In this document: in pieces, positions 5,739 through 58,495 of the stretch | How the letters are laid out: each line of letters begins with the position of its first letter | Position numbering within the stretch: position 1 is the first letter of the stretch | Translations under genes and position numbers: made by a program | The notes under the pieces: model-generated | What the model was told of the DNA's origin: nothing | Seen by the model: only the letters and a program-made list of their open reading frames with translations | The model's database searches: none | DNA from: Planctomycetota bacterium | GTDB taxonomy: Bacteria; Planctomycetota; GCA-2746535 | DNA length: 64,000 nucleotides | Direction of reading: 5' to 3' | Assembly: GCA_002746535.1 (NCBI GenBank) | Contig: NVWA01000016.1 | Span: 1 to 64,000, forward strand

Positions 5739-6148
5739 ACTTATTCTCCTTTTTTAAATAATACTCATGAGGGTATTCATTCACCCTTTTGTTATATAAC
5801 AATCGACATGCCACCATTCAAATGAATTTATAAACATATAAACCGCAATGGTTTACAATTAAATAGCTAAAGTGAACGTTTCGAACTGTACAAATTTTGA
5901 TCGACTAAAACATCAAATGTACAATGCCTACATTAGGATTTTAAACATAACTGGTACGGGTAATTAGATATAGGATTTCAACTTAGTTCAAAATAAATCC
6001 ATGGCAGGGACAAACAATCAAACAGCAGTATCTGTAATTTTTATTAAAAAGAATAATCATCGATGATGAACCTAACTAATATTCAAATCGTACTTATAAT
6101 AAAGATTCCATTTTAGAATTAAATTTTACCTTTTTATATAGGATTATT

Positions 6149-6985
6149 ATGGGTAGTAAAAAAATGTCTGATAAAAAAAGATTTCTCATAATATTTTCTA
6201 TCCTTCTGACGTGTGTCTATTTACTAGCTTTATCAGGATTATACTTCTTACAAGAGAAAATGATTTTTCTAAACGTAAGAACAAATCAAGAAACAGCGAC
6301 CCAACTTAATACACTTTTCCCAAAATCAGAATTGTTTATTGAGACAGAGGGTGCTATTTCACTACATGGTTGGCATCTGCCAAAGAAGAATTCTGAAATT
6401 CTAAATATATGTTTTAATGGTAATGGTGATGAAGCGACACAAGTTGCTTACTTTTGGCATCAAACTTTAAAAGGGGCGATTGTAACCTTTAACTATCGTG
6501 GTTACGGGAAAAGCACCGGTAAATCTAGTCAAGAAAAATTGTTTAATGATGCCCTTTTAATATTTGATACTATCAAGGCTAAATATCCACAATATAAAAA
6601 GATCTACATTATTGGCAGAAGCCTAGGTACGGGCATAGCTTGTCATTTAGCTTCCAAAAGAGACTGTGCAGGTCTTCTATTGATTAGCCCCTACGACAGC
6701 ATTCTAAATATCAGTAGGCAGAACTACCCCATTTTCCCGGTTAAATTATGTTTACGTCATCCGTTTGATTCGCAATTACTGGCTGATAAAATTGAAGAGC
6801 CAACATTTTTTATCGCTGCAAAAAATGATTCTTTAATACCCATTAGCAATTCTCTAAACCTATATAACCAATGGCAAAGTAAAAAAGAAATCCACTATGT
6901 ACCAAATGCTGGCCACAATAATATTTTCCAAAAAAATGAATTCTTAACTTTTCTTAAAGATTTTTATATATTCGCTGAAAAATAG
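6149..6985 (+). CDS. alpha/beta hydrolase with N-terminal TM anchor
   Basis: GRSLGTG nucleophile elbow (GxSxG), NAGHNN His region and an N-terminal hydrophobic helix. Confidence 0.7.
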   Translation: MGSKKMSDKKRFLIIFSILLTCVYLLALSGLYFLQEKMIFLNVRTNQETATQLNTLFPKSELFIETEGAISLHGWHLPKKNSEILNICFNGNGDEATQVAYFWHQTLKGAIVTFNYRGYGKSTGKSSQEKLFNDALLIFDTIKAKYPQYKKIYIIGRSLGTGIACHLASKRDCAGLLLISPYDSILNISRQNYPIFPVKLCLRHPFDSQLLADKIEEPTFFIAAKNDSLIPISNSLNLYNQWQSKKEIHYVPNAGHNNIFQKNEFLTFLKDFYIFAEK

Positions 6986-6989
6986 TAAT

Positions 6990-7014
6990 GTAAAAAGCTG
7001 AAAGCTTTTTTTAC
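6990..7014. terminator. bidirectional rho-independent terminator hairpin between convergent genes
   Basis: GTAAAAAGC-tgaaa-GCTTTTTTTAC: a 7-9 bp stem flanked by an A-run and a T-run, sitting between the stops at 6985 (+) and 7016 (-). Confidence 0.5.
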
Positions 7015-7015
7015 A

Positions 7016-7720
7016 TTAAGAAGATAGAATTTCTTTTTTCTTATCTTCTAATAGTTTGTACTCAGATTCTTCAAGGGGTTGCCTAAGGGTCTCATCAATT
7101 AACTCTATCGCCATTTCTACATCTTTTAATTGTAAAAAAGAAATGTCGGCTGCTTTTAGAGTCACTGCTACTTTTAAAGAATCATTCGTCGCAAATTCTA
7201 AAGATTCTTCATACGCACCTACGGCCTCTTCATATTTATTTAAACCATTGTAAGCGTCACCAAGATAAGATAATAAAATAGAGTTACTCTGGACAATAGT
7301 CCATTTAGCTTTTAAGTGATTAAATACTTTTTTCCAATTCTCATGCTGAATCTCCACATCCACAAATTTTATAAACCGATTTATATCTGGTTCACTAAAC
7401 GAGCTAAGCATTATATACCGTGCCAAAATTGAAGTTAACAAAGAGATATGAACAACAACAGCTGACCATAATAAAATAAAACCTATTATTTTAACTACAC
7501 CGAACATATTGCCATTCTTTAAGTCTTCCAAACCAACATTCAGCAACATGTTAATATCAAAATCTTGTAATGATGGAAATCTATTAGAATAAATAAGCGT
7601 AAAGAAAAAAAGACCTACAAAAAACCAATCAAATAAAAATTTTACTAAAAAAGCACCTGAGTCAGTGCCCATAAAATATTTTCGTATTTGGAAAAATGCT
7701 CTGATTGCGAGAACTATCAT
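7016..7720 (-). CDS. membrane protein with C-terminal TPR-like repeat
   Basis: Three or four N-terminal hydrophobic helices and a TPR-like LGDAYNGLNKYEEAVGAYEESLEFA segment. Confidence 0.4.
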   Translation of the reverse strand: MIVLAIRAFFQIRKYFMGTDSGAFLVKFLFDWFFVGLFFFTLIYSNRFPSLQDFDINMLLNVGLEDLKNGNMFGVVKIIGFILLWSAVVVHISLLTSILARYIMLSSFSEPDINRFIKFVDVEIQHENWKKVFNHLKAKWTIVQSNSILLSYLGDAYNGLNKYEEAVGAYEESLEFATNDSLKVAVTLKAADISFLQLKDVEMAIELIDETLRQPLEESEYKLLEDKKKEILSS

Positions 7721-7728
7721 AATTTTTC

Positions 7729-8637
7729 TTAGTTATTATCTTGATGTATGATTAATATTATTCCAAAACCATCTTTGGTCGTAACGATATATACAAAATC
7801 ATTACAATTATTCAAACAATACTCGAAACCTAAAATTGGTCCTAAAGATTTTAATTCAGGAACAACGGCAGTTACCTTCTCAAGATTTATACAAGTATTT
7901 AATTCGTTGCTGCTAGTGGAATCCGAATAATGAAATATTTTTTCAGGCAAATCACCCATTGAATTTTTGGCACAATCAATTAAATCGCTCCTATTCTCAC
8001 TTTCAGACAACCATGGCTTTCCTCTGCCTAAAGAAAATTTTACAGAAAATGAAAACGAATTATCAAATGGTATTTTTGAAACTACTCCCAAAACAGCCTC
8101 TTCAATAAATGATGAATCAAGAGATCTAATTCTCTCACCAGTTCCAAATATCATCAAATCTTGTTCTTTAGTTTCCAGAGCCAATATAGAATCTAAAAAT
8201 GTAACCAGGCCAATTGAAGCATCTCCGTTATAACCAGCTGAGACACCTTGAAATTCATGCTCTATTGCTAATACCGCGCTCCCAGTGTTATGAATAGTTC
8301 TTGGTATCGTCAAAGGGGAAACGCGTTTCAAACCACTTCCATAAAACTTCTTCCCTTGCTTGAAATATTCATGGAAACCGCCTGATTCGCTACCGAGTAA
8401 AATTCCAACTCGTTTATTGTCAGGAGAAGTGTTTGAGGAAAATAAATTAGCATGAATAGCAATTTGATCTAATGCTAAATACTGTAACGGGGAAAATGAA
8501 AAACCCCGTTGCTTTATATTGCGTGGAATAGAGAAAATAATTTCATCGGATATTTTGTTGATCATACCCGATGAATTAATTGAATTGTATTGTTGATTCT
8601 GATTGAAATATAGATCAGAAAACTTTAAATAATACAA
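7729..8637 (-). CDS. beta-ketoacyl synthase-like protein, N-terminal domain only, catalytic Cys absent
   Basis: RVSPLTIPRTIHNTGSAVLAIEHEFQGVSAGYNGDASIG...IFGTGE aligns with the FabF stretch KISPFFVPSTIVNM...GPSISIATACTSG...VAGGAE, but the active-site Cys is replaced (GDAS). There is no C-terminal His-His half. Confidence 0.45.
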   Translation of the reverse strand: MYYLKFSDLYFNQNQQYNSINSSGMINKISDEIIFSIPRNIKQRGFSFSPLQYLALDQIAIHANLFSSNTSPDNKRVGILLGSESGGFHEYFKQGKKFYGSGLKRVSPLTIPRTIHNTGSAVLAIEHEFQGVSAGYNGDASIGLVTFLDSILALETKEQDLMIFGTGERIRSLDSSFIEEAVLGVVSKIPFDNSFSFSVKFSLGRGKPWLSESENRSDLIDCAKNSMGDLPEKIFHYSDSTSSNELNTCINLEKVTAVVPELKSLGPILGFEYCLNNCNDFVYIVTTKDGFGIILIIHQDNN

Positions 8638-8923: not shown

Positions 8924-9850
8924 TTAGTTTAATTTTTCTAAATCAGTCACTTCTTTAATGTTAATGACTTTTATTTCTTTATTTATCCTTCTCATCAATC
9001 CAGTTAAAACCTTATTTGGTCCTAACTCAATAAAATTCGTATACCCAAGATCAATTAATTTCTCCATTGTTTGATACCATCTAACCGGAGAAGTAAGCTG
9101 ACCTACTACTGTTTCTTTCACATCTTCAACATTTGTAACTGCACTAGCAGAAACATTTGAATAAACTTTACTTTCCGTTTCAGAAAGAGAAACAGAATCA
9201 AAAGCTTCACTCAATGCAGACTCTGCACTTGCCATTAAAGGTGAATGAAATGCTCCCGAGACACTTAACGGAATCACTCGTTTAGCACCTGCTTCCAAAA
9301 GCTTTTTTGAAGCTTCTTCAACAGCTGCAGTTTCACCTGAAATCACAATTTGAGAACTAATATTGTAGTTTGCACTTTGAACAATTCCATCAATATTTTT
9401 ACAAATTTCGTCAATCGTATTAACATCTAAATTTAATACGGATGCCATTGTACCATCGGTAGATTCAGCAGCCTTTTGCATAGCTTCGGCGCGTTTTTGC
9501 ACTAATCGTAACCCATCTTCAAATTGCCATGTACCACATGCTGAATGAGCTGAAAACTCACCTAAACTTAGACCTGCAAATTGTGATTCGCTTGATACTG
9601 AAATCTTTCCTAATGATTTTAATACTTCCCAAATAACCCAACTCGTTGTGTATATGGCAGGTTGACTATTTATGGTTTGGGTCAACTCTTCGTTAGGTCC
9701 CTCAAAACACAGTTGACTAATCGAATATTTTAAAATTTCATCGGCTTTATGGTAGGTATCTTTAGCAATTTGAAATTCATCGTAGAAGTCTTTACCCATT
9801 CCAACAGATTGAGCACCTTGACCAGGAAATAAAAAAACTGTCTTCGACAT
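8924..9850 (-). CDS. fabD: malonyl CoA-ACP transacylase
   Basis: GQGAQ and GLSLGEFSA (GHSxG-type) motifs. Confidence 0.9.
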
Positions 9851-9871
9851 ATTAGATAAAGCCTTTAGAAA

Positions 9872-10816
9872 TTACCAACGAATTAAGGTAGCTGCCCATG
9901 TTAAACCACCGCCAAAAGCAGGACACAAAATTAAGTCCCCTTTTTTAAACTTTTCTCCGCCTTCTTCTAAGGCAAGCGGAATTGAAGCCGCCGAAGTATT
10001 ACCATATTTTTCCAGGTTTATAAAAACTTTTTCCATGGGAACATCAAACTTTTTCGCCGTCGTCTGCAAGATTCGCATATTAGCCTGATGTGGCACAATC
10101 CAATCGATCTCATCTTCGGAAAAGCCCTCTTGTTCTAAAACCTTTTTCGAAGCTTGAACAAGATTTCTGACAGCATGCTTGAATAAATCTTTCCCTTTCA
10201 TTTGAACAACAGCAGAATTATGATTACTGTCACGACCACGCACTTCTAATAGATCGCTATATTTGCCATCAGATCCACCATATGTGCCAATCAACTCATG
10301 ACCATCATCACCCTTACCAACTATCGCCGCACCGGCACCATCACCAAATAAAATACATGTCGAACGATCGGTCCAATCAAGAATCTGGGAAATTTTTTCA
10401 ACACCAATTATTAATATATTTTTATAGACGTCTGTTTTTACGAGACTTTCAGCAACTTGTAGACTATATAGGAATCCACTACACATACCTAAAATATCAA
10501 AGGCAATGATTCCATTTAATCCCATTTTATTTTGTGCAATACAAGCCGTTGAAGGACTCGGTTGATCCCCAGAACAAGTAGCAATGATCAAACAATCAAT
10601 ATCTTCTTTTTGAAGACCTGCTTTTTCAATCGCATCAAGCCCAGCCTTACATGCCATATCCGATGCTAACTCATCGTCAGCAGCAATTCGTCTTTCAACC
10701 ATTCCAGTTCGTTCTCTGATCCAAGCATCATTGGTATCTAGAGTTTTAGATAAGTCATCATTAGTTAAAACTTTTTCCGGAACATATTTTCCAAAAGATT
10801 TTATTATTATACTCAT
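9872..10816 (-). CDS. fabH: 3-oxoacyl-ACP synthase III
   Basis: AFDILGMCSGF active-site Cys, PHQAN and GNTSAAS motifs. Confidence 0.9.
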   Translation of the reverse strand: MSIIIKSFGKYVPEKVLTNDDLSKTLDTNDAWIRERTGMVERRIAADDELASDMACKAGLDAIEKAGLQKEDIDCLIIATCSGDQPSPSTACIAQNKMGLNGIIAFDILGMCSGFLYSLQVAESLVKTDVYKNILIIGVEKISQILDWTDRSTCILFGDGAGAAIVGKGDDGHELIGTYGGSDGKYSDLLEVRGRDSNHNSAVVQMKGKDLFKHAVRNLVQASKKVLEQEGFSEDEIDWIVPHQANMRILQTTAKKFDVPMEKVFINLEKYGNTSAASIPLALEEGGEKFKKGDLILCPAFGGGLTWAATLIRW

Positions 10817-10829
10817 AACTAATGTCCTT

Positions 10830-11849
10830 TTAGCCTACCGAAGAAGAATTTATACTTGTTAATTCTTTCACAATATGTTCATTTAATTTGCCCGTATAAT
10901 TGTTTTTTGCCACATTAAGCGCATTAAAAACTGCCGTCCCATCAGCTTTTCCATGTCCAATCACACAAATACCATTTACGCCCAGTAATAATGCGCCACC
11001 AAATTCAGAGGGATCAGTTTTTTTCTTCATGCTTTTAAATACAGGGCTAAGAACCCAAGTAGCAATTTGATTAAGCAGACTTGAGGTAATATCTTCTTTA
11101 ACAATGCTCAGAATACTTTTAGCCAGTTGTTCACAAGACTTTAACAAGACATTTCCAGTAAAACCATCGCAAACTATCACATCAAAAGTACCTTTAAAGA
11201 TATCATCACCCTCAGCATTGCCACAAAAGTTAATACCACAATCACTTAGTAAGCTATGAGCTTCTTTAACAACTTCATGTCCCTTAGCAGCTTCTTCACC
11301 AACATTCATTAGACCAACTCTAGGATTTTCCACACCAAAGACACTTTTGCTGTAATGGTAGGCCATAATACCGTAACCTAATAAGTGTTCTGCTTTAGGC
11401 TCAACACTTGCTCCCATATCAATCATAACACAAGGTTTATCGTGAGTAAAAGTCGGAAATGGAATCGCTAATCCAGGACGTTTAACACCTGGCAATGCAC
11501 CCAAAACTAATTGAGATGTAAAAACAGAAGCTCCGGTATTTCCCATCGTTACAAATGCATCCGCTTCTTTATTTTTAACGGCATCTACAGCAACTCTAAT
11601 TGAAGATTTTTTTTTACTTCTATAAGCAGTTCGCGGGGAATCTTCCATCGTTACAATATCGGGTGCATGTCGGATTTCTATTCGACTTCGATCTGTAACT
11701 TGAGCTAGATCAAGCTCTTTTAAAATGATTTCTTCAGGACCCGTTAATAAGAGGTTTGTGTCTTTGTCATTTTCTAAAAATATTTTTAGGCCATCAACAA
11801 TAGCACTTGGTGCTTTATCGCCGCCCATTATGTCTAATGCAATTCGCAT
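10830..11849 (-). CDS. plsX: phosphate acyltransferase PlsX
   Basis: MRIALDIMGGD start and full-length PlsX-like sequence immediately downstream of rpmF. Confidence 0.9.
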   Translation of the reverse strand: MRIALDIMGGDKAPSAIVDGLKIFLENDKDTNLLLTGPEEIILKELDLAQVTDRSRIEIRHAPDIVTMEDSPRTAYRSKKKSSIRVAVDAVKNKEADAFVTMGNTGASVFTSQLVLGALPGVKRPGLAIPFPTFTHDKPCVMIDMGASVEPKAEHLLGYGIMAYHYSKSVFGVENPRVGLMNVGEEAAKGHEVVKEAHSLLSDCGINFCGNAEGDDIFKGTFDVIVCDGFTGNVLLKSCEQLAKSILSIVKEDITSSLLNQIATWVLSPVFKSMKKKTDPSEFGGALLLGVNGICVIGHGKADGTAVFNALNVAKNNYTGKLNEHIVKELTSINSSSVG

Positions 11850-12050: not shown

Positions 12051-12310
12051 CGTAATTCCTTCACTAAATTATTGATAAATATCGTATGAAAAATAGGCGG
12101 GGGATTTTAAAAATTACCCCATATTTGTCAATGTGAAGTTCATTTTGGCTATTTTCAATACGAAAAGAATAAAGGCTTATTTGAAATACAAAGAATAAAT
12201 TTTAAGGCACATTCCATACAATAAATATTTAGTATAAAATTGACTGAATAAAGTGTCCTATAATTCATTTTAAAATCAATATTAACAATCATAAAAAGAA
12301 CCTTGGGCAT

Positions 12311-12943
12311 ATGCCAGAAAACACAAAAGATCTAAAACTAACGGTTGAATTAAGAGGCGCTCCATTACCAAAGCCATTAAATAAAATAGCCACCCATTTA
12401 TATTTTGTCATTTATCGTGAAAAGCCCAATGATAATATAAACTTATGTGAGCGATGGGAATTATGGGAAACCAAAAATGCTTTTCAAAAAAAAGATCCCG
12501 ATTCGCTTGAAAATAATGATCAAGACTCTTATGGCCATATTCATAAAAATCTAAAAGCACCGAATGACGGTGTTGGGGGAGGCCCATCCTTTCTAGTAAA
12601 AACCTGGATAGGCGAAAATGCCCTAAAGATCAATCAAACCATCTATTCATGTAATGACAACTTTTCATATAAAGCTTATTACCTGCCTTGGCCTGGTCCA
12701 AATAGCAATACCTATATTTCTTCTATATTGGAGAAAAGCAGAATACCCTATTCACTGCCTATTTCTGCAATAGGAAAAGACTGGAGAGGTTTATTCCAAT
12801 ATAAAAAAGACCGTGAAACTAAATCTTTTATCTTCCAGATTCTTACATTTGGTTTTAAATATGTGGCAAATAGGTTTTGGGAAATTCACTTTCTAGGCTT
12901 TACCTACGTTCATCATCATTCAACCGAGAAACAGTCTACATAA
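12311..12943 (+). CDS. hypothetical protein
   Basis: 210-aa ORF with no secure family call (it weakly recalls DUF3750). Confidence 0.35.
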   Translation: MPENTKDLKLTVELRGAPLPKPLNKIATHLYFVIYREKPNDNINLCERWELWETKNAFQKKDPDSLENNDQDSYGHIHKNLKAPNDGVGGGPSFLVKTWIGENALKINQTIYSCNDNFSYKAYYLPWPGPNSNTYISSILEKSRIPYSLPISAIGKDWRGLFQYKKDRETKSFIFQILTFGFKYVANRFWEIHFLGFTYVHHHSTEKQST

Positions 12944-13204: not shown

Positions 13205-15106
13205 ATGACAGAAAATCAAAAACATCCCAAAGAATGGTGCGTAGAAACTAAAGCATCTAATCAAAAAGAAATTTTCAAATTAAGAACAAAAGAATTAGCC
13301 TTTTCTCTCTATAGACTTGCATCATTTTTTCTTTTGGGAATTGGTCCTTACTTTGCCATCAATTTAGATCATCCCATAAAATCAATTTTTTGGCTTTCGT
13401 TGCCGATTGGTTCAATCGCTTTTTATATTTTTGTTCGCAAACATCAAAATGTAAAAGACTCAATATATTTTTTATCAAACACAAATAACGCAATTGATTT
13501 AACACTTCAATCATTAAGCGACAATCAATTTACACCTGTAAGTCATCAATCAAAAGACAGCCCAATATATCCTGATGCAGAGCATTGGAAACTAACCGAA
13601 CAAGAAACGGATGACCTCGACTTTTATTCAGAAGGGGCATCACTATTTGGCAAAATCAATCGCACCTACTCTACCAAAGGCAGACAAATATTATCTGGCC
13701 TACTAAGTGCACCACTATTAAATAAAAACCCTATTGATGAAAGAGCAAAGGCCTATGCCAATTTAGAAAAGAATCCAGCGTTTCTCCATTTAATGGCTGG
13801 CAATGCTAAAGATTTTTCTAATTTACAAGAGCAGTTTTTAAATTTAAAATTGGCATTGAATTCAGAAATAAATCTACGCGGTTCGGGACTTTCAAAATTT
13901 TCACTCGGCTATACGTTTCTACCGCTTATCTTTTTGGTCATTTTATTACAAGGTTATATACATCAAAAATATTTTGTCTTTTTGGGTCTTATAATTCTGG
14001 CCAATATTATCTTTACAAAAATTATTGAAAAAAGAGTTTTCCCTTTATTAAAACCGTGGCTAAGTATTAGTTCTCTTTTAAATTATTCGGAATTATTTCT
14101 TCAAAAAGCAACCGCTATTGAATATACACACGAACCACTGAAATCACTGGCGGCAAAAAGCAAGATTTTAATTGAAGACAGCAATTTACCAGCATTGAAA
14201 AGCAGCGTTTCACTAATTCGCCTAAGGTATTCAGGAGTTATCCATATGATCGTCGATACTCTTTTTTTCTGGGACATTCGTGTTATGTGCCATTTAGAAA
14301 AGGTATTGAAAAATCAAAGTTCATTTGAGAATTTAGAAGAAATCATTGGAGAGTGGGAAGCACATATTTCAATGGCACTACAAAACTATGTGAATTTCGA
14401 CGGAACATATGCTGAAATACTCGATAAAAAAGAGTTTTCAATTATTGATGGCACTCACCCCCTTCTACCCGCGAATGCTGTCATTGGTAATAGCATACAG
14501 CTTCAACCTAGTGATAGAGCTTGGGTTATCTCAGGTTCAAACATGTCTGGTAAATCTACTTTTTTAAGAATGGTCGGAATCAATTCATTATTTGGGCAAG
14601 TAGGTTTAAAAACATATTCTAAAAAGACTTATATGTGCCCATTAAGAATCATGACTGATTTACGTATACGAGATAATTTATACAAAAATGAAAGCTACTT
14701 TCTTGCTGAAGTAAAACAATTAAAAAGAATGATTGATTTATCAACGGGCGAACCAGTAGTACTTGGTATTATCGATGAACCATATCGAGGTACCAATTCT
14801 GACGAAAGAGTGGCAGCCAGTTTAGAGGTTCTAAGATTTTTATTAAGTAGTGGCGGATTTTTTCTAACTGCTACCCACGACAAAGAAGTCACACAATTAG
14901 TTGGTGAAATTAACGATGTTAGCAATCATCATTTTCAAGAAACATTGAACGACAAAGATATAAGTTTTGATTATCTAATTCGTGATGGCATAGCAACTAC
15001 CCGCAATGCGATTAAAGTTCTAGAACAAGAAGGTTACCCTGCAGAAATCATACAAAGAGCTGAAGCCCTACTCGAAAAAAATAATAAAAACGCGCGGGAG
15101 TTTTAA
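13205..15106 (+). CDS. MutS-family ATPase (domain V) with N-terminal membrane segments
   Basis: Walker A VISGSNMSGKSTFLR and the MutS-type GIIDEPYRGTNSDERVAA motif. Several hydrophobic helices lie in the first ~300 aa. I moved the start from the ORF-track 13115 to the ATG at 13205, because 13115 sits inside the tRNA. Confidence 0.6.
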   Translation: MTENQKHPKEWCVETKASNQKEIFKLRTKELAFSLYRLASFFLLGIGPYFAINLDHPIKSIFWLSLPIGSIAFYIFVRKHQNVKDSIYFLSNTNNAIDLTLQSLSDNQFTPVSHQSKDSPIYPDAEHWKLTEQETDDLDFYSEGASLFGKINRTYSTKGRQILSGLLSAPLLNKNPIDERAKAYANLEKNPAFLHLMAGNAKDFSNLQEQFLNLKLALNSEINLRGSGLSKFSLGYTFLPLIFLVILLQGYIHQKYFVFLGLIILANIIFTKIIEKRVFPLLKPWLSISSLLNYSELFLQKATAIEYTHEPLKSLAAKSKILIEDSNLPALKSSVSLIRLRYSGVIHMIVDTLFFWDIRVMCHLEKVLKNQSSFENLEEIIGEWEAHISMALQNYVNFDGTYAEILDKKEFSIIDGTHPLLPANAVIGNSIQLQPSDRAWVISGSNMSGKSTFLRMVGINSLFGQVGLKTYSKKTYMCPLRIMTDLRIRDNLYKNESYFLAEVKQLKRMIDLSTGEPVVLGIIDEPYRGTNSDERVAASLEVLRFLLSSGGFFLTATHDKEVTQLVGEINDVSNHHFQETLNDKDISFDYLIRDGIATTRNAIKVLEQEGYPAEIIQRAEALLEKNNKNAREF

Positions 15107-50598: not shown

Positions 50599-51582
50599 TT
50601 AAACAATATTACTGTTTTTAGTGAGCTCATTTCTTGCAGATCTGCTATCCATTTTTCCATCAAACTCTTTAACAAGGTCCGCGTATAATTCAGGATTTCT
50701 TGTTTTCATGTGCATACGTCCAAGAGTTCCATTCAATGAATCTTTGTTTATTTTTGCTATCGCCATATCAGAATCAATACTTGCTGATTCACTTAAAACA
50801 ATTCCATTAGGATCTATAATCATGGCATTGCCCGTTCGAAGTTCATCATAATCTAAACCAACCCCATTAGAAAAGACATGAAACATACCGTTATCATAGG
50901 CCCTTGAAGGCAACCATTTCAGAATCCATTCTCGACCTTTTGGACCACTAAATTCTTTGGACAATTCCTTTTCACAACTACTTTTATTTTCCCATAATTT
51001 GGTATCTATTCTTCCCATGCCTGCTACTTCGACATCGAACCCACCTGTCTGATGTGGTGCGAATAATAGATCACACCCATTCAATGCATAAGCTCTTGTA
51101 TTCTCAGGTAAATTATTATCAAAACAGATTAAAATACCGCATTTCCAACCAAACAAATCAAAAATCGGAAACTCACTACCTTGTGACATAAATGAATTTT
51201 CGAAAGCATGAATCTTTCGATATTTTTGCAAATAACCATCAGGAGTAACACATACAAATGTATTGAAAAGCTCATTTTCCGCCGTCTTTTCAAGCAACCC
51301 AAATAATATTACAATATTAAATTCTTTAGATAACTTTTGAATTTCTTTAGTCGAATTGCCTTCTGGCACAACTTCGGCAATCTTCAACAGATCATCTTTT
51401 TCCTCAGTATAAAGGATAAAGTTATATCCCGTGATACAAATTTCAGGAAAACTAATAACATCACAACCTTGTTTACTTGCAGACTCAATAAAGGTTTTCA
51501 TCTTTGTTAAATTTATCTCTTTATTTTCTTGGTCAGCATTAAACTGAACTGTTGCAATAGATAGTTCATTTTTAATAGACAT
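50599..51582 (-). CDS. carbon-nitrogen hydrolase (nitrilase superfamily)
   Basis: FPEICITGY (Glu region), catalytic Cys in GILICFDNNLPE, and a Lys region. Confidence 0.7.
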   Translation of the reverse strand: MSIKNELSIATVQFNADQENKEINLTKMKTFIESASKQGCDVISFPEICITGYNFILYTEEKDDLLKIAEVVPEGNSTKEIQKLSKEFNIVILFGLLEKTAENELFNTFVCVTPDGYLQKYRKIHAFENSFMSQGSEFPIFDLFGWKCGILICFDNNLPENTRAYALNGCDLLFAPHQTGGFDVEVAGMGRIDTKLWENKSSCEKELSKEFSGPKGREWILKWLPSRAYDNGMFHVFSNGVGLDYDELRTGNAMIIDPNGIVLSESASIDSDMAIAKINKDSLNGTLGRMHMKTRNPELYADLVKEFDGKMDSRSARNELTKNSNIV

Positions 51583-53709: not shown

Positions 53710-54459
53710 TTAAGTTCCATATGAGTTTAGGTCCTTATTGTCTTTAGATATTTCTGAATTTGATTCATGTTTTAAATAAAGGAATAATGACCAAGAGATG
53801 ATTGAAAAAAAGGAGTATAACTTAAATGCTTTTCCACCATCAAGTTTTGGCACTAAATAAGAGGATTCTAAAATTTCATACAACCTACCTGAATGAAAAG
53901 GATCTATATCAAAAATATTGCTAATTATCATTAAAGGATTTAATTCTAAACATAACAAATTAATTTTATCCTTAAAATCTCTATTGAAAATCTCCTCATA
54001 ATGAGCAGAGCCATACTCCATCAATGATGGTAAAATAAAAAGTCCGGCAATTAAAGCAAGAGTTATAAATCCAATGAGCACTTGTGATAAATATGGTTTT
54101 AAAATCAAATGACTAATTCGCAGAAGTCCTTTAATAAAATAAATAAAACTAAAAACAATCATCATTGCCCAAAGAATATTTTTAGAATTAAATTGATGAT
54201 CAATAAAAATCATACATCCTATTAATGTGATAAAATAGGGAGTAAGATCTTCTAATAAAATTCTTATGAGCACACTCCAATTATCCGTATTTCTAAAAAT
54301 GAAATTAAAGAATAAGGCATGAACAAGAAATGTGATAAAAATGAAAGCAGGAATTATTTGGTTTTGACCGGTTGTAAAAATTACTAGAAAACCAGAGCAC
54401 ATTAAAGAGATCACAAAGTGTCCCAAAAATATTTTCAGATTGAAGAATCTAGTATACAT
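53710..54459 (-). CDS. polytopic membrane protein, unknown function
   Basis: About 7 TM helices, no motif. Confidence 0.4.
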   Translation of the reverse strand: MYTRFFNLKIFLGHFVISLMCSGFLVIFTTGQNQIIPAFIFITFLVHALFFNFIFRNTDNWSVLIRILLEDLTPYFITLIGCMIFIDHQFNSKNILWAMMIVFSFIYFIKGLLRISHLILKPYLSQVLIGFITLALIAGLFILPSLMEYGSAHYEEIFNRDFKDKINLLCLELNPLMIISNIFDIDPFHSGRLYEILESSYLVPKLDGGKAFKLYSFFSIISWSLFLYLKHESNSEISKDNKDLNSYGT

Positions 54460-54651: not shown

Positions 54652-55302
54652 ATGAATAAAAAAGCATTGATCACATGGGGTGGTTGGGATGGTCACGAAC
54701 CCGATTCATGTGCCAAAATAGTTAAGGAAATTCTTGAAAAAGAAAACTATTCTGTTGAGGTATATGATACCCTAGAAGTTTATGAAGATTCTGAAAATTT
54801 AAAAAGTTTAGACCTAATTGTTCCTATATGGACGATGAGTGAAATAAGCAATGAACAAGAAAAAGGATTACTAAATGCTATTCTTTCTGGCACTGGTATA
54901 GGAGGGTTTCATGGAGGTATGGGAGATTCCTTTAGAAAAAATACCGAATACCAATGGATGGTAGGTGGACAATGGGTGGTACATCCAGGTGGAATAATCG
55001 ATTATAGCGTACAAATTTCCTCTGATGACGCTATTGTTGAGGGTATAAAAGATTTTAAAATGCAATCTGAACAATATTTTATGCACACGGATCCGGGCAA
55101 TGATGTACTGGCAACAACAACTTTTTCAGGTATCGAGGGAAATGCCCCTTGGATCGCTGAAACAGTAATGCCGGTTGTATGGAAAAGACAATATGGTAAA
55201 GGCAAAGTTTTTTACTCTTCCTTGGGACATGTTGCAAAAGATTTTGAAGTACCAGAAATGAAAGAAATACTAAGACGCGGATTACTCTGGGCAACCCGTT
55301 AA
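54652..55302 (+). CDS. ThuA-like (class I glutamine amidotransferase-like fold) protein
   Basis: ITWGGWDGHEP ... GIGGFHGG ... VVHPGG pattern of the ThuA family. Confidence 0.65.
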   Translation: MNKKALITWGGWDGHEPDSCAKIVKEILEKENYSVEVYDTLEVYEDSENLKSLDLIVPIWTMSEISNEQEKGLLNAILSGTGIGGFHGGMGDSFRKNTEYQWMVGGQWVVHPGGIIDYSVQISSDDAIVEGIKDFKMQSEQYFMHTDPGNDVLATTTFSGIEGNAPWIAETVMPVVWKRQYGKGKVFYSSLGHVAKDFEVPEMKEILRRGLLWATR

Positions 55303-55461
55303 TAAATTAATCATGAAACCTCTTATTTTTAAGAGGTTTTCACCTCCTTAAGCAACCTATTTATTTTCTATTTGAAACTAATATTTCCACTTAATTCCAA
55401 TTATCCTGTAACGTATTCATTTTAACTGCATCTTGTATTTAAACTGACCACCTAAACGGGA

Positions 55462-56223
55462 GTGCGTTTTATGAATAATATAGGGAAAAAGGCATCATAC
55501 GAATCCGGCGTTTCACAAGCAATCAAATCTACAAATTACGCAGAATCATCCATTTCTAGCATAAATAAATTCACCGTTAAAGTTGCTGAAACAACTGATG
55601 AAAAACGAAATGCTTTTCATCTAGCATATCAATCCTACCTGAAAAAAGGATATACGACAGAATCAGAAAATGGGCTATTGGACGAAGAATACGATAAATG
55701 GATGGATACAACCATTTTTATCACCATTGATCAAAAGAATAAGGTCATCGGCACAGCCAGTGTACTTTATAACCACTCCAATAATTTACCCTGTTTTGAA
55801 TTATTTGACATTGCCAACATCACCCAAGATCTTTCTACCGCAGAAATCACAAGGTTTGCAATAGATGATAAGTGTAAACACGGGTTACAAATTCTTCAAG
55901 AAATGTATGTATATTTGTATTTTTTCTCTAAAAGAAATTTTAATATAGAATGTTTTCTAATAGAGGTCAATCCTAGACACGTAATGTTTTATGAAAAAAA
56001 GCTGGGGTTTAAAATTATAAGAAATGGTGTACCATGCCCACGAGTTCATGGAGCAATTGCTGTATTACTACAAACAAATTTTGAACTTTTTGACTCAATA
56101 AACAAAGGAATATCAATCAAAAATAAAAAGTTAAAATACATTTATAATTATTATAGAAATTTTGAATTCACCAATACTACAAAAGTAAGAAGTAATAAAG
56201 AACAATTTGTTTTAAGCAAATAA
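55462..56223 (+). CDS. LuxI-like / N-acyl amino acid synthase-like GNAT acyltransferase (Acetyltransf_5-like)
   Basis: KVIGTASVLYNH...AEITRFAID...EVNPRHVMFYEKKLGFKII follows the autoinducer-synthase / N-acyl amino acid synthase pattern (viGt.Rl ... EiSRfav ... v.p.h..fY..lGF). Confidence 0.5.
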   Translation: MRFMNNIGKKASYESGVSQAIKSTNYAESSISSINKFTVKVAETTDEKRNAFHLAYQSYLKKGYTTESENGLLDEEYDKWMDTTIFITIDQKNKVIGTASVLYNHSNNLPCFELFDIANITQDLSTAEITRFAIDDKCKHGLQILQEMYVYLYFFSKRNFNIECFLIEVNPRHVMFYEKKLGFKIIRNGVPCPRVHGAIAVLLQTNFELFDSINKGISIKNKKLKYIYNYYRNFEFTNTTKVRSNKEQFVLSK

Positions 56224-56228
56224 TCATT

Positions 56229-57656
56229 ATGACTAATTCAAAACTAACGATTAATTTCGCACATCTTCTTAAAAAATATATCGAAGATCAATCTGAACAA
56301 GATATTGCTATTTTTTTTAAAGAGATTCATGGGTTGTTATATCGAGTTGCTTGGTCATTTCTTAAAAATAGTGCCGATGCAGAAGATGTCCTTCAAATGG
56401 CCTTTATCAAAATCATTCAAAACATCCATCAGTGCAAAGGATTAAAGGAAGAAGATAATGAATCCATTCAAGCATGGTGTGTTTCAATTGTTAGGAATTT
56501 ATCGCGTATGAAACTTAGATCCCATAAATCCAGAGAACGTAGAAATTCAAAAGTATCAGAAAAAATAAAACCATTTACCATCGATGAAAATGAAATTCAA
56601 AAGTCAGAAAATCGGGCGGAAGTAAGTCAAAGATTAGAGACCGTATTAATGGAGCTTCCTGAAAAATACAGAGTAGCCATTCATTTAAAATTTATTGAAG
56701 GAATGAATTATAAAGAAATGTCTGCGGCTTTAGCAGTAAATACTGATACACTAAGGGTTCAGGTTAAGCGTGGTTTAGAAAAATTGTCCTTGTCATTGAA
56801 AAAGATAGGAATTGTTGCTTCAATTGTTTCTATTACTACTTTATTACCAAAAATGCCTCTTCATGCTTCGCCAAAGAATATTGATTCACTGATTCAAATA
56901 AGCTTACAATCAAAATCCCATACTGTCTTAGAGACATCAACGACAATGCAATCTATAAAGATTTATTTAATATTACCAATTTTGTTAGCAACAATCGTAA
57001 CTATAAGCTCTATCAATTCTTCAAACATTACAAACTTTTTTTCAACATTAATCTCAAATCAGAGCAATGAAATAATCAATCAGCCTAAAAAGGAACAATT
57101 TATAAGCTGGAAATGGGATTTCAAAAATGGTGAAGGCAAAGAAGTTGAATTAGTAAGAGGGAAATGGGCATTTAATAACAAAAGAGGAACAATGTCACTT
57201 GGTGTTAATAAAGCAATCGTTATTAAATTACCTGTACATTCCATTCAAACAAATTTTGTAATTGAATATGATTTAGCCTTATTCAAGAGAGTAAACGCAG
57301 ATTTAGCATCTTATGGTAGATACTCAGCAAACGAATTTTTTCTTGAATGCGAATATATAGCGCTAAGTAAAAATAACGTTAAAAGATTAGGAACCTTTAA
57401 AGGAAAATCATATTTTTATAAAAACTATATTATCAAAACGTTTGAAGGTAAAATAAATGATATTGTCAAATATCAAAAAAGACCAAAAGACTACGATCTA
57501 TTTGTTGTTTTAAAAACCTTTGATATTAAAAGGATCCAAGTAAAAGCTATTAAATCAATTCCAGCGTTTGTAAAAAATAAGATAAAGGACTTGGATGAAA
57601 GCGAAATGGTTTTTAATCAAACGTATCACGTTGATCGGCTAAAAACTACTTACTAA
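56229..57656 (+). CDS. ECF sigma-70 factor fused to a C-terminal TM and extracytoplasmic-like domain
   Basis: Sigma region 2 (DAEDVLQMAFIKIIQNIHQ) and region 4 (EGMNYKEMSAALAVNTDTLRVQVKRGLEKL), then a TM helix IYLILPILLATIVTISSI and about 200 more residues. Confidence 0.7.
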   Translation: MTNSKLTINFAHLLKKYIEDQSEQDIAIFFKEIHGLLYRVAWSFLKNSADAEDVLQMAFIKIIQNIHQCKGLKEEDNESIQAWCVSIVRNLSRMKLRSHKSRERRNSKVSEKIKPFTIDENEIQKSENRAEVSQRLETVLMELPEKYRVAIHLKFIEGMNYKEMSAALAVNTDTLRVQVKRGLEKLSLSLKKIGIVASIVSITTLLPKMPLHASPKNIDSLIQISLQSKSHTVLETSTTMQSIKIYLILPILLATIVTISSINSSNITNFFSTLISNQSNEIINQPKKEQFISWKWDFKNGEGKEVELVRGKWAFNNKRGTMSLGVNKAIVIKLPVHSIQTNFVIEYDLALFKRVNADLASYGRYSANEFFLECEYIALSKNNVKRLGTFKGKSYFYKNYIIKTFEGKINDIVKYQKRPKDYDLFVVLKTFDIKRIQVKAIKSIPAFVKNKIKDLDESEMVFNQTYHVDRLKTTY

Positions 57657-58495
57657 AGACATTTTAAATCTTTACTGCGTTTATCTTTAACAGTGGTTCC
57701 ACTGTTTAGCTTACCGTTCATTGCATCATACTTAAAATTCCCGCCGGCATCATAGAAATCTTTTTTAAGATCAATTGTATCGATTAATAAACCCGCTTTA
57801 TGTTTTATTAGCTTTTTTCTTATTTTACCATCCGGGTCGATAAAGAGAGAAGGCCAACACTGATGTCTTTTGCTGTTATTATTTCCGATCACATACATAT
57901 GATTGGTAGCTGCACGACACTGTAAATTAGGATGCATAATAATATCATGAATAGATCCATTTATTAAATTTGCATTATAAAAAGAATGCAAAACACAGTC
58001 GACATTAAGCTTTAAATACTCTCGATACAATTCAGGAAATCGCACATCGTAACAAATTAGCAATCCAAATTTAACACCATCTACTTTAAATGTAGTAAAG
58101 TGATCTCCTGGTGCATAACATTTTAAGTCGCCTCCAGTACAAAAACGCTTGTCATAACGGTCCACAATTTTCCCCTTATCATTGATCACGTACAAACAAT
58201 TATGGGGTAATTTTTTTTCTGTTAGAGGATGTGAACTACCAAGCACAACCCATATTTTATATTTTTTAGCCATCTCCATTATTTCTATGGTGGCTTCTTT
58301 TAATAATATCCAATCAACATCTTTTTTATCATGCCAATCAGATCCACCATAACCAGATAAACATGTTTCTGAAAAATGAATTAGCCTAACTTTCTTTTTT
58401 CCTGCCTCTATAACATATTTTAAAATATAAGTTTTATTCTTAGCAATATCTTTAGATATTGGAAACTGACAAGTTGCTATTTTAATTTTTGACAT
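57653..58495 (-). CDS. carbon-nitrogen hydrolase (nitrilase superfamily), second paralogue
   Basis: IHFSETCLSGYG (Glu region), catalytic Cys in GLLICYDVRFPE, and a Lys region. Confidence 0.7.
   Translation of the reverse strand: MSKIKIATCQFPISKDIAKNKTYILKYVIEAGKKKVRLIHFSETCLSGYGGSDWHDKKDVDWILLKEATIEIMEMAKKYKIWVVLGSSHPLTEKKLPHNCLYVINDKGKIVDRYDKRFCTGGDLKCYAPGDHFTTFKVDGVKFGLLICYDVRFPELYREYLKLNVDCVLHSFYNANLINGSIHDIIMHPNLQCRAATNHMYVIGNNNSKRHQCWPSLFIDPDGKIRKKLIKHKAGLLIDTIDLKKDFYDAGGNFKYDAMNGKLNSGTTVKDKRSKDLKCL

Follow-up and report, generated by a model that had tools for sequence, protein, structure and literature searches.

Among the bioactive lipids of bacteria, N-acyl amino acids form an expanding class, and essentially nothing is known of how their synthesis is regulated. 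Planctomycete N-acyl amino acid synthases make the secreted stieleriacines (PMC7293339, PMC12479983), and these two reports name no sensing pathway. An ECF sigma factor beside the synthase was considered for the stieleriacine cluster of Stieleria maiorica and rejected, as the regulator listed there is of the DegU type. Sigma factors fused to a transmembrane (TM) segment and a sensor are already known in ECF52, ECF53 and IutY (PMC8999054), and both IutY and the ECF52 protein SCO4117 are activated by proteolysis (PMC8999054, PMC5826349). For SCO4117, regulation of its own promoter has been reported, and the extracytoplasmic domain of ECF52 binds carbohydrate (PMC5826349, PMC8999054). Literature searches returned nothing relevant that connects ECF sigma factors with the synthesis of N-acyl amino acids.

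The 64,000-nucleotide stretch of DNA analysed here (the window) carries both kinds of protein in adjacent genes on the + strand: a FeeM-family N-acyl amino acid synthase gene (55471..56223) and a gene for an ECF sigma factor with a fused TM helix and C-terminal sensor domain (56229..57656). Recurrence of this pairing in unrelated uncultured bacteria points to a putative sense-and-respond circuit of an undescribed kind.

The synthase was originally read as a 253-residue open reading frame (55462..56223), whose GTG at 55462 is a mechanical start. The true start is likely to be ATG 55471, which has a Shine-Dalgarno-like GGGAG (55459..55463, + strand, by direct reading of the sequence) 8 nt upstream and gives a 250-residue product identical to the deposited COA79_12220. 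Both open reading frames of the original prediction were recovered with their landmarks, ITRFAID and EVNPRHVMFYEKKLGFK in the first and sigma regions 2 and 4 with IYLILPILLATIVTISSI in the second.

As had been proposed, the first product matches an N-acyl synthase profile well above cut-off: PF21926 (FeeM) gave E=8.4e-29 and 100.8 bits (cut-off 27) over profile positions 2-158 of 158. In a search of the PDB, the solved FeeM structure 2g0b was matched by a profile of the synthase family (E=2.7e-14), and the single sequence gave no match, so the likeness to FeeM is detectable by family profile only. E125 is invariant and aligns with the Glu of the FeeM LAEVVQF strand, which we take to be catalytic, and the first part of an EVNPRH..FY motif aligns with SINPKH of FeeM. 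PF21926, the conserved Glu, EVNPRH..FY and a catalytic domain of ∼160 residues are shared with the FeeM/NasY synthases (2g0b and the Stieleria stieleriacine synthases), and in both Stieleria and the present case there are several paralogues per planctomycete genome (PMC12479983). The same metagenome-assembled genome (MAG) holds two further FeeM paralogues, neither of them beside a sigma factor of this type. By comparison with FeeM/NasY, the clade of the present synthase conserves an N-terminal SGVSxAI motif (∼35 residues), and the gene is not clustered with ThiF, nitroreductase or methyltransferase tailoring genes.

The description of this enzyme as LuxI-like holds at the level of superfamily or fold only; by family it belongs with neither LuxI nor Acetyltransf_5. 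PF13444 (Acetyltransf_5) gave no match in the Pfam profile search, and PF00765 (Autoind_synth) gave a partial match of 18.3 bits (E=0.0018); because this lies below the cut-off of 24, the synthase is not counted as a member of the LuxI family. Judged by its profile matches, it is a FeeM-family enzyme. The model for PEP-CTERM/exosortase-associated acyltransferases, TIGR03694, was not reached (13.6 bits against 111.95), and none of the neighboring genes was recognized as an exosortase. The predicted reaction is the conversion of acyl-ACP and an amino acid to an N-acyl amino acid.

The architecture of the 475-residue sigma factor was derived from profile matches, a family alignment and an AlphaFold model. 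Its core (56316..56786) consists of region 2 (residues 30-101; PF04542, Sigma70_r2, E=1.1e-10) and region 4 (residues 134-186; PF08281, Sigma70_r4_2, E=2.2e-10), and TIGR02937 gave E=2.5e-27 and 95.5 bits against a cut-off of 42.9. Region 3 found no match in the profile search. Possessing regions 2 and 4 without regions 1 and 3, the protein is by domain content an ECF (group 4) sigma factor. The core-binding motif DAEDVLQ and the region 4 motif LPEKYR are invariant across the alignment. None of the NCBIfam subfamily or equivalog models reached its cut-off, the best being NF058625 with 85 bits against 130.

A single TM helix (56961..57017; residues 245-263, including IYLILPILLATIVTISSI at 245-262) has a Kyte-Doolittle value of 2.04. 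With a 19-residue Kyte-Doolittle mean of at least 1.5 as the criterion, 14 of 15 family members showed a hydrophobic peak at this position of the alignment, and the AlphaFold model has a helix over this position at residues 248-275. Approximately 212 residues lie C-terminal to IYLILPILLATIVTISSI. [quoted passage not shown]

The linker between sigma core and TM helix comprises ∼55 residues, and no Cys, no Pfam match and no recognizable anti-sigma domain of the zinc-finger (HxxxCxxC) or FecR type was found within residues 190-245. Directly after region 4 lies a conserved amphipathic/hydrophobic segment (56805..56861; residues 193-211), which in the family alignment has an invariant S198 and is followed by P-L-x-A-P. 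It has a hydropathy of 1.63, is modeled as a short helix with a pLDDT of about 70-75 and is possibly autoinhibitory or positioned on the membrane surface. Were this a second TM helix, the C-terminal domain would come to lie in the cytoplasm; this is unlikely because the corresponding residues of homologues include charged ones. The segment of the present protein is itself moderately hydrophobic. On the basis of hydropathy and logic, the sigma core would be located inside and the C-terminal domain outside the cytoplasm.

The C-terminal domain (57099..57623; about residues 291-465) is predicted to be extracytoplasmic, and its ∼190 residues were confidently modeled as a β-sandwich with the concanavalin-A-like lectin/glucanase fold. 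Its closest structural neighbors are carbohydrate-binding lectins and carbohydrate-binding modules (CBMs), and it matched no Pfam family. The domain is rare, with 83 cluster representatives among 1.84 billion, and is found almost exclusively fused to ECF sigma factors. When 185,579 species-representative genomes were scanned with the sigma factor alignment, only generic ECF sigma factors were recovered, matching up to residue ∼290, and no relative with the C-terminal domain was among them. Taken by itself, the C-terminal part of the alignment offered no stretch of sufficient conservation for such a scan. From the fold, the cue may be a glycan or cell-surface molecule. A lectin-like fold is no proof of glycan binding, and some β-sandwich domains of this superfamily, such as the LamG-type domain of SHBG, bind hydrophobic small molecules.

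The sigma factor resembles ECF52 (SCO4117), ECF53 and Pseudomonas putida IutY in the succession of a sigma2/sigma4 core, TM helix or helices and an extracytoplasmic domain, and in having no separate anti-sigma gene. Unlike in those proteins, the short linker contains neither a zinc-finger or FecR-type anti-sigma domain nor a proline-rich spacer, and the sensor domain belongs to a distinct family without a Pfam model. The lineages also differ, ECF52 and ECF53 being actinobacterial and IutY proteobacterial. In the planctomycete ECF57 group (formerly ECF01-Gob, WD40-type), long C-terminal extensions are also present; here, the extension is made up of one TM helix and a lectin-like β-sandwich, not WD40-like repeats. 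One weak match in the sigma factor search (P0017) was an ECF of the PD40/WD40-like type.

Inspection of the region upstream of the synthase gene revealed a predicted ECF-type promoter at 55408..55433 (+ strand), in which a −35 element GTAAC (55408-55412) and a −10 element CATCT (55429-55433) are separated by a 16-nt spacer. An extended form of this motif is near-identical ahead of the orthologous FeeM-sigma operons of two other loci (L001 and L002). GCAAC-N16/17-CATCT was found upstream of 9 of the 10 paralogous sigma genes in L005, L006 and L008, and L007 has a clade-specific variant ahead of both sigma genes and FeeM-containing operons. The motif was spotted by eye and the pattern drawn up after the data had been viewed; chance alone would give about 3 matches on each strand of 64 kb. 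Five other matches on the + strand of the window (7932, 22856, 34554, 44639 and 53400) were dismissed as chance, given that all sit inside opposite-strand open reading frames. No sigma-70-type promoter was matched on the + strand in 55303-55470, and a sigma-54 promoter was rejected, since the GC is not preceded by a GG at the required distance. Genes for sigma-54 activators, which had prompted this reading, neighbor some of the loci. The position of the ECF-type promoter ahead of the synthase gene points to the synthase as the predicted output of the sigma factor.

The two genes are separated by 5 nt (TAA tcatt ATG), one fewer than first reported. Orthologous FeeM-sigma operons have gaps of 93-122 nt; the tight spacing is thus not kept, and translational coupling, which the original prediction had taken as a property of the system, is not a feature of it.

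The FeeM-sigma pair is present on at least 8 independent metagenomic contigs with differing flanking genes, in two GC classes (31-36% and about 60%) and in both gene orders, and pairs are sometimes repeated. It occurs in L001 and in L002/L003 (together with L004, a short contig with the same sigma protein). L007 contains two or three pairs and L102 contains two, and the order in L094, L095 and L097, from lineages of about 60% GC, is sigma followed by FeeM. L101 holds a split version in which the sigma gene is followed by a gene for a FecR-type anti-sigma factor and then by FeeM. Only one clade of FeeM takes part in the pairing: a sigma gene of this kind was absent from all of ∼70 loci that carry more distant relatives of FeeM. 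The association is not obligatory either, given that the sigma family members in L005, L006, L008 and L009 lack a FeeM gene in their vicinity. These gene arrangements support the view that synthase and sigma genes form a conserved functional pair.

The best reading of these data, to which we assign a probability of roughly 0.55, is that the locus encodes a one-component sigma/sensor that regulates its own expression and has the synthesis of an N-acyl amino acid as its output. In this model, the cytoplasmic sigma2/sigma4 core would be tethered through the 55-residue linker and the one TM helix to the lectin-like domain outside. Ligand-triggered regulated proteolysis, by analogy with IutY and ECF52, would then free the core, and proteolytic release is probably the means by which the system is switched on. 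The active sigma factor would direct RNA polymerase to GTAAC-N16-CATCT upstream of the operon, and transcription would both raise the level of the sigma factor itself, constituting positive feedback, and express the synthase. With acyl-ACP as donor, the synthase would attach an acyl chain to an amino acid and so form a lipoamino acid, and since the sigma-driven promoter would drive the synthase, this lipoamino acid would be the output of the circuit. By analogy with the planctomycete stieleriacines, the product may be a secreted bioactive or surface-active lipoamino acid.

A closed autoinduction loop, in which the N-acyl amino acid is exported and is itself the ligand that the partner sigma factor senses through its extracytoplasmic domain, is an unlikely account, albeit one with several points of appeal. 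The arrangement would follow the logic of LuxI/LuxR circuits, with a tethered ECF sigma factor replacing LuxR: an acyl-ACP-dependent GNAT-type synthase adjoins a transcription regulator, positive autoregulation is predicted, and where pairs are repeated (L007 and L102) every paralogue of the sigma factor is accompanied by a synthase paralogue of its own, as would be expected of matched signals and receptors, although tandem duplication of the operon also explains such repeats. FeeM shares a fold class with LuxI-type synthases, a similarity reportedly described by Van Wagoner and Clardy in 2006, and the weak PF00765 match is in keeping with this. Binding of a hydrophobic small molecule has, as for SHBG, precedent among the β-sandwiches of the superfamily; the proximity of the sensor domain to carbohydrate-binding lectins and CBMs favors glycans, without being decisive. 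Many members of the sigma family have no synthase nearby, and the sensor is replaced by a FecR-type anti-sigma factor in L101. The system would also depart from LuxI/LuxR in that the synthase lies outside the LuxI family and the cytoplasmic LuxR has a membrane-tethered sigma factor as its counterpart. Of the original proposal of a signal-producing enzyme wired to a sigma factor, the conserved pairing survives; sensing of the product by the sigma factor does not follow from it, given the lectin or carbohydrate-binding type of the sensor fold and a promoter that points to the synthase as output.

If the product were indeed the input, a new quorum-sensing architecture in the phylum would be at hand; to our knowledge, canonical LuxI/LuxR systems are not established there. 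The fuller version of this idea is a slightly more doubtful one: a new cell-to-cell signaling module of planctomycete-like bacteria in which a FeeM-made N-acyl amino acid autoinducer would be sensed outside the cell by the lectin-like domain, the sigma factor released and the operon amplified, with the duplicated pairs of L007 and L102 acting as separate channels.

Equally doubtful is remodeling of envelope lipids, whereby the sigma factor would sense envelope or surface stress and the synthase would make a membrane lipoamino acid, as in the ornithine and glycine lipid pathways, in place of a secreted compound. Envelope stress responses are classically under the control of ECF sigma factors (PMC8103513). 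In L006 and L008, a fatty-acid desaturase gene lies directly downstream of a paralogous sigma gene, which ties this family of sigma factors more broadly to the metabolism of acyl lipids, and the model for the ornithine N-acyltransferase OlsB matched the synthase very weakly (E=0.11). Against this, the OlsB and PF13444 results are negligible beside the FeeM match, the operon contains no second (O-)acyltransferase or OlsA-like gene, and the FeeM-type enzymes characterized in the cited literature make secreted N-acyl tyrosines and related compounds (PMC12479983).

That an ordinary N-acyltransferase gene has come by chance to lie beside one of the very many ECF sigma genes of planctomycete genomes (PMC7826278), with no functional meaning, is disfavored as highly improbable: two FeeM paralogues of the same MAG do lie away from this sigma type, but the pair recurs across the independent contigs, with different neighbors, in two GC classes and both orders, and is limited to one FeeM clade with a promoter motif in common.

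The autoregulated sigma/sensor reading would make the locus a compact and testable regulatory unit, with one promoter, one enzyme and one sigma factor doubling as sensor. The sigma factor represents a rare family that could be added to the ECF classification and whose sensor domain is new. As a small, self-contained sigma/sensor for which a promoter is defined, a protein of this kind would also be of interest for use as an orthogonal genetic switch.

Additional features were observed at the margins of the operon. The upstream neighbor is a ThuA-family gene, just after which direct reading of the sequence revealed a 10-bp hairpin, AAACCTCTTA-TTTT-TAAGAGGTTT (55314..55340, + strand). This is a possible terminator insulating the operon; the assignment is tentative because the T tail is weak and a simple terminator scan consequently missed the hairpin. 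A palindrome, TTTTCTATTTGAAAC (55364..55378, + strand), is situated 44 nt upstream of the −35 element and is a candidate binding site for a dimeric regulator. The same element, TTTTC-N5-G(A/C)AA(A/C), recurs 40-50 nt upstream of sigma-gene promoters in L005, L006, L007, L009, L101 and L102. A pattern this loose should turn up ∼2.7 times on each strand of 64 kb, so it is the recurrence at this position, and not the single match, that constitutes the evidence.

At the downstream end, the sigma gene overlaps the convergent nitrilase (CN_hydrolase) gene (57653..58495) by 4 nt, exactly as initially described. Membership of this gene in the module was rejected, as the sigma genes of L001-L003 have no such neighbor. 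A CN_hydrolase gene is present in L007, but at a distance of ∼6 kb from the nearest sigma gene.

The two open reading frames of the original prediction, 55462..56223 (+) and 56229..57656 (+), were recovered from the sequence together with the peptides quoted for them, and their products are identical to the deposited proteins COA79_12220 and COA79_12225 of a MAG labeled 'Planctomycetota bacterium'. The true start of the first gene is probably the ATG at 55471, which has GGGAG 8 nt upstream and yields the 250-aa protein as deposited. The intergenic distance is 5 nt (TAA-tcatt-ATG) rather than the 6 nt first stated. The sigma factor ATG has no purine-rich ribosome-binding site ahead of it, and it is therefore plausible that in this operon translation of the sigma factor depends to some degree on that of the upstream gene. 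The gap in orthologous operons is 93-122 nt, however, and the tight translational coupling originally proposed is therefore not a general property of the system. As had been predicted, the sigma factor stop codon (57654-57656) runs into the end of a convergent CN_hydrolase gene (57653..58495, (-)), with an overlap of 4 nt; a second carbon-nitrogen hydrolase gene of the nitrilase superfamily (50599..51582, (-)) lies within the same 8 kb. Such an enzyme could in principle be an amidase acting on N-acyl amino acids, but the convergent gene is not conserved at L001-L003, the contigs that carry the two closest homologues of the sigma factor. Upstream of the operon are a 249-aa ORF (53710..54459, (-)) with many hydrophobic stretches and no Pfam match, likely a multi-pass membrane protein, and a ThuA-family gene (54652..55302), 3′ of which a 10-bp hairpin (55314-55340) was not scored as a terminator by a simple terminator scan. 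The GC content of the window is ∼33%, low despite the Planctomycetota label of its source.

Across the entire PF21926 profile (N-acyl amino acid synthase FeeM), the 250-aa protein scored 100.8 bits (cut-off 27; E=8.4e-29), whereas its match to the LuxI-type Autoind_synth profile was partial and sub-threshold (18.3 against a cut-off of 24). PF13444 was absent from its Pfam matches, and exosortase-associated and OlsB models gave negligible scores. A profile of the clade retrieved the solved FeeM structure 2g0b (E=2.7e-14), with E125, invariant in the clade, aligned to the glutamate in the LAEVVQF strand of FeeM and EVNPRH..FY aligned to SINPKH..FY. Given the full-profile match, the match to 2g0b and the aligned motifs, the protein is, on sequence criteria, a member of the FeeM family; the description 'LuxI-like' holds for the wider acyltransferase fold and fails at the level of family. 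It is a predicted synthase, the substrate amino acid and acyl chain of which are not readable from sequence. An SGVSxAI motif (S12, G13 and S15 invariant; residues 11-18, window 55501-55524) is conserved N-terminal to the catalytic domain in the sigma-associated FeeM clade and falls outside the alignment of the clade to FeeM itself.

In the 475-aa sigma factor, Sigma70_r2 and Sigma70_r4_2 lie within residues 30-186. The general ECF model TIGR02937 matched with E=2.5e-27, and none of the named sigma subfamily models reached its cut-off. Alignment of 15 homologues (430-496 aa) from end to end revealed invariant DAEDVLQ and LPEKYR...RGLEKL motifs and, directly after region 4, a conserved amphipathic segment (invariant S198, then P-L-x-A-P), followed by a variable linker and a run of hydrophobic residues whose place in the alignment is fixed. 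In the C-terminal domain that comes next, W296, G311, P335, F343 and Y395/Y397 are conserved. A hydrophobic helix was detected by Kyte-Doolittle scan in 14 of these homologues; in the window protein it spans residues 245-263 (2.04), and residues 248-275 are helical in the full-length AlphaFold model, with low-confidence linkers on either side, all of which bears out the TM helix predicted for the extension. Residues 193-211 of the window protein are moderately hydrophobic as well, but a second TM helix was judged unlikely there because the homologues carry charges in this segment; the sigma factor is therefore read as a single-TM protein. Since the sigma core is necessarily cytoplasmic, one TM helix should place the C-terminal domain outside the cytoplasm.

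Residues 283-475, modeled alone, gave an all-beta sandwich (pLDDT 87.5, pTM 0.85) with Foldseek matches to calreticulin, CBM66, ERGIC-53, VIP36 and galectins at TM-scores of ∼0.5 and ∼10% identity. The modeled sensor domain thus has a concanavalin-A-like lectin/glucanase fold, and a Pfam scan detected no sequence family for it. Among 1.84 billion cluster representatives, a profile of the domain retrieved 83 proteins at E<=1e-3, of which 16 remained at E<=1e-30; most have a length of 460-510 aa, the domain spanning roughly residues 280-480, and Sigma70_r4_2 was found in 59 of the 66 longer carriers. Judged from these matches, the domain is rare and all but confined to ECF sigma factors of this type. 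Species-representative genomes scanned with the sigma alignment yielded, at that sensitivity, neither a relative that carries the C-terminal domain nor the source MAG.

ECF-dependent promoters usually combine a -35 element ending in AAC with a short C-rich -10 element, and operons that encode ECF sigma factors are typically transcribed by those factors. Within the 168 nt ahead of the synthase gene lies TGTAACGTATTCATTTTAACTGCATCTTGT, the predicted operon promoter, which has this usual form (GTAAC-N16-CATCT, 55408..55433 (+)), and no match to a sigma-70-type promoter was found upstream of the operon. The orthologous operons carry TTTGTAATGCTTTTGAAACCACTGCATCCTGT (L001) and TTTGAAATGCTTCTGAAATGATTGCATCCTGT (L002), and GCAAC-N16/17-CA(T/C)CT or CGTCT precedes 9 of 10 paralogous sigma genes on three further contigs (L005, L006 and L008). 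A variant, TGAAGAA-N16-C(A/G)T(A/T)A, lies ahead of sigma genes and FeeM-containing operons alike in the clade represented by L007 and L009. The motif was derived after inspection of the data and is a prediction only. Several controls speak in its favor: the loose pattern has a chance rate of ∼3 per strand per 64 kb, its five other + strand matches in the window are all within opposite-strand ORFs, and the operon, as noted, has no sigma-70-type match ahead of it. Given the shared motif and the self-transcription typical of ECF sigma factors, the simplest interpretation has the synthase-sigma operon driven by its own sigma factor, and the lipoamino acid would then be an output under positive feedback. 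Transcription of its own operon has been reported for SCO4117 (PMC5826349).

A quorum-sensing-like closed loop, with the synthase product as the ligand of the sigma factor, would fit both the logic of the gene arrangement and the repetition of synthase/sigma pairs, but it is unlikely, being favored neither by the lectin type of the sensor fold nor by the large number of family members that lack a partner; the interest of the system is moderate and would be high only if such a loop were true. A palindrome, TTTTC-N5-G(A/C)AA(A/C) (e.g. TTTTCTATTTGAAAC or TTTTCAAATAGAAAA), stands 40-50 nt ahead of the predicted promoter in many family sigma genes (window 55364-55378; also L005, L006, L007, L009, L101 and L102) and looks like a candidate site at which one dimeric regulator could act on all of them. 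The window has another copy (12152-12166), which is intergenic, between a 339-aa ORF (10830..11849, (-)) and a 210-aa ORF (12311..12943).

The two closest sigma homologues (∼40% identity), at L001 and L002/L003, each have a FeeM gene immediately upstream, and the neighbors of the operon are entirely different. L003 has an additional, convergent FeeM gene, and a short third contig (L004) carries the same sigma protein as L002/L003 behind a FeeM gene fragment. The order at L007 is sigma, unknown gene and FeeM, second sigma, FAD oxidase and FeeM, third sigma; the genes that precede FeeM in the same operon encode a 270-aa protein without a Pfam match (9445-10257) and an FAD_binding_4 oxidase (13208-14878), both possible tailoring enzymes. 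FeeM is absent near the sigma members of L005, L006, L008 and L009. Three or four tandem sensor-fused sigma paralogues, each with its own predicted promoter, are found at L005 (4585-9327), L006 (2482-8560) and L008 (468-7282); L009 has neither tandem paralogues nor a desaturase gene. At L006 (4012-4893) and L008 (3764-4696), a fatty-acid desaturase gene 57-128 nt directly downstream of one paralogue takes the place occupied elsewhere by FeeM, which suggests a more general connection between the sigma family and acyl-lipid metabolism. Membrane-lipid remodeling would accord with these desaturase neighbors and with the envelope functions classically ascribed to ECF sigma factors, but is improbable as the function of the operon in view of the missing OlsB/OlsA signature. 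The tandem clusters of L005 and L006 are each directly preceded by the gene for a large sigma-54-type activator (L005 2194-4416 and L006 92-2314), and another such gene (L098 3486-5792, (-)) is divergent from a FeeM gene; the encoded activators are of 740-769 aa, with Sigma54_activat and a C-terminal HTH. No sigma-54-type -24/-12 promoter was evident.

The enzyme side was surveyed by a metagenome contig scan followed by local HMM searches. Sigma genes adjoin FeeM only among its closest relatives (L094, L095, L097, L100, L101 and L102) and at none of ∼70 loci with more distant ones. The sigma factors encoded there, of 502-1023 aa and ECF type, share the layout of the window protein: a core, then the amphipathic segment, a single TM helix and one or more beta-rich domains. 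The 1023-aa relative at L102 (2381-5452) has three tandem outer domains, each beginning with a W-D/E-F-E-N motif. At L101, which retains the palindrome, the arrangement is split, with separate genes for a sigma factor of 176 aa and a FecR-type anti-sigma factor ahead of FeeM. By GC content, paired loci form two classes (31-36% and ∼60%), and both gene orders are represented. Two other FeeM paralogues of the source MAG (L010 1204-2016 and L011 720-1547; 29-31% identical to the window enzyme) are not so paired: one follows an NmrA-like reductase gene, and the other has an ordinary ECF sigma gene (200 aa) ∼1.1 kb away, itself followed by a gene for a 1539-aa von Willebrand-domain protein. Given recurrence amid different neighbors, GC classes and gene orders, chance adjacency of the two genes is effectively excluded, and we conclude from these comparisons that one FeeM clade is functionally linked to a sensor-fused ECF sigma family, the link being conserved and, in view of the unpaired members, not obligatory. 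At L093, an ISAZ013-type (Rhodopirellula) DDE transposase gene (5965-8061) directly follows a close FeeM relative, in the usual place of the sigma gene.

FeeM-type synthases are already known, and fusions of ECF sigma factors to TM and sensor extensions have likewise been described; C-terminal extensions occur in 19 ECF groups (PMC7826278), and ECF52 has a carbohydrate-binding domain (PMC5826349). The sensor-domain family and the sigma-sensor fusion without a recognizable anti-sigma domain both appear to be undescribed in the searchable literature.

From the computed parts, namely the enzyme family, ECF core, TM helix, lectin-like domain, conserved pairing and conserved promoter, we infer that, until a cue acts on the outer domain, the sigma factor would be kept at the membrane, kept in check by the conserved segment after region 4, or both. 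It might then be released through regulated proteolysis, by analogy with IutY, for which this has been shown, and ECF48/52/53, for which it has been proposed (PMC8999054). Unlike in those proteins, the linker (∼55 residues, no Cys, no Pfam match) is without an anti-sigma domain. The cue may be a glycan, to judge from the modeled fold alone. The product may resemble the stieleriacines, secreted N-acyl tyrosines of Stieleria, whose genomes encode several N-acyl amino acid synthases; one of the synthase clusters includes a fatty-acid desaturase (PMC7293339, PMC12479983), which parallels the desaturase genes beside sigma paralogues in L006 and L008.
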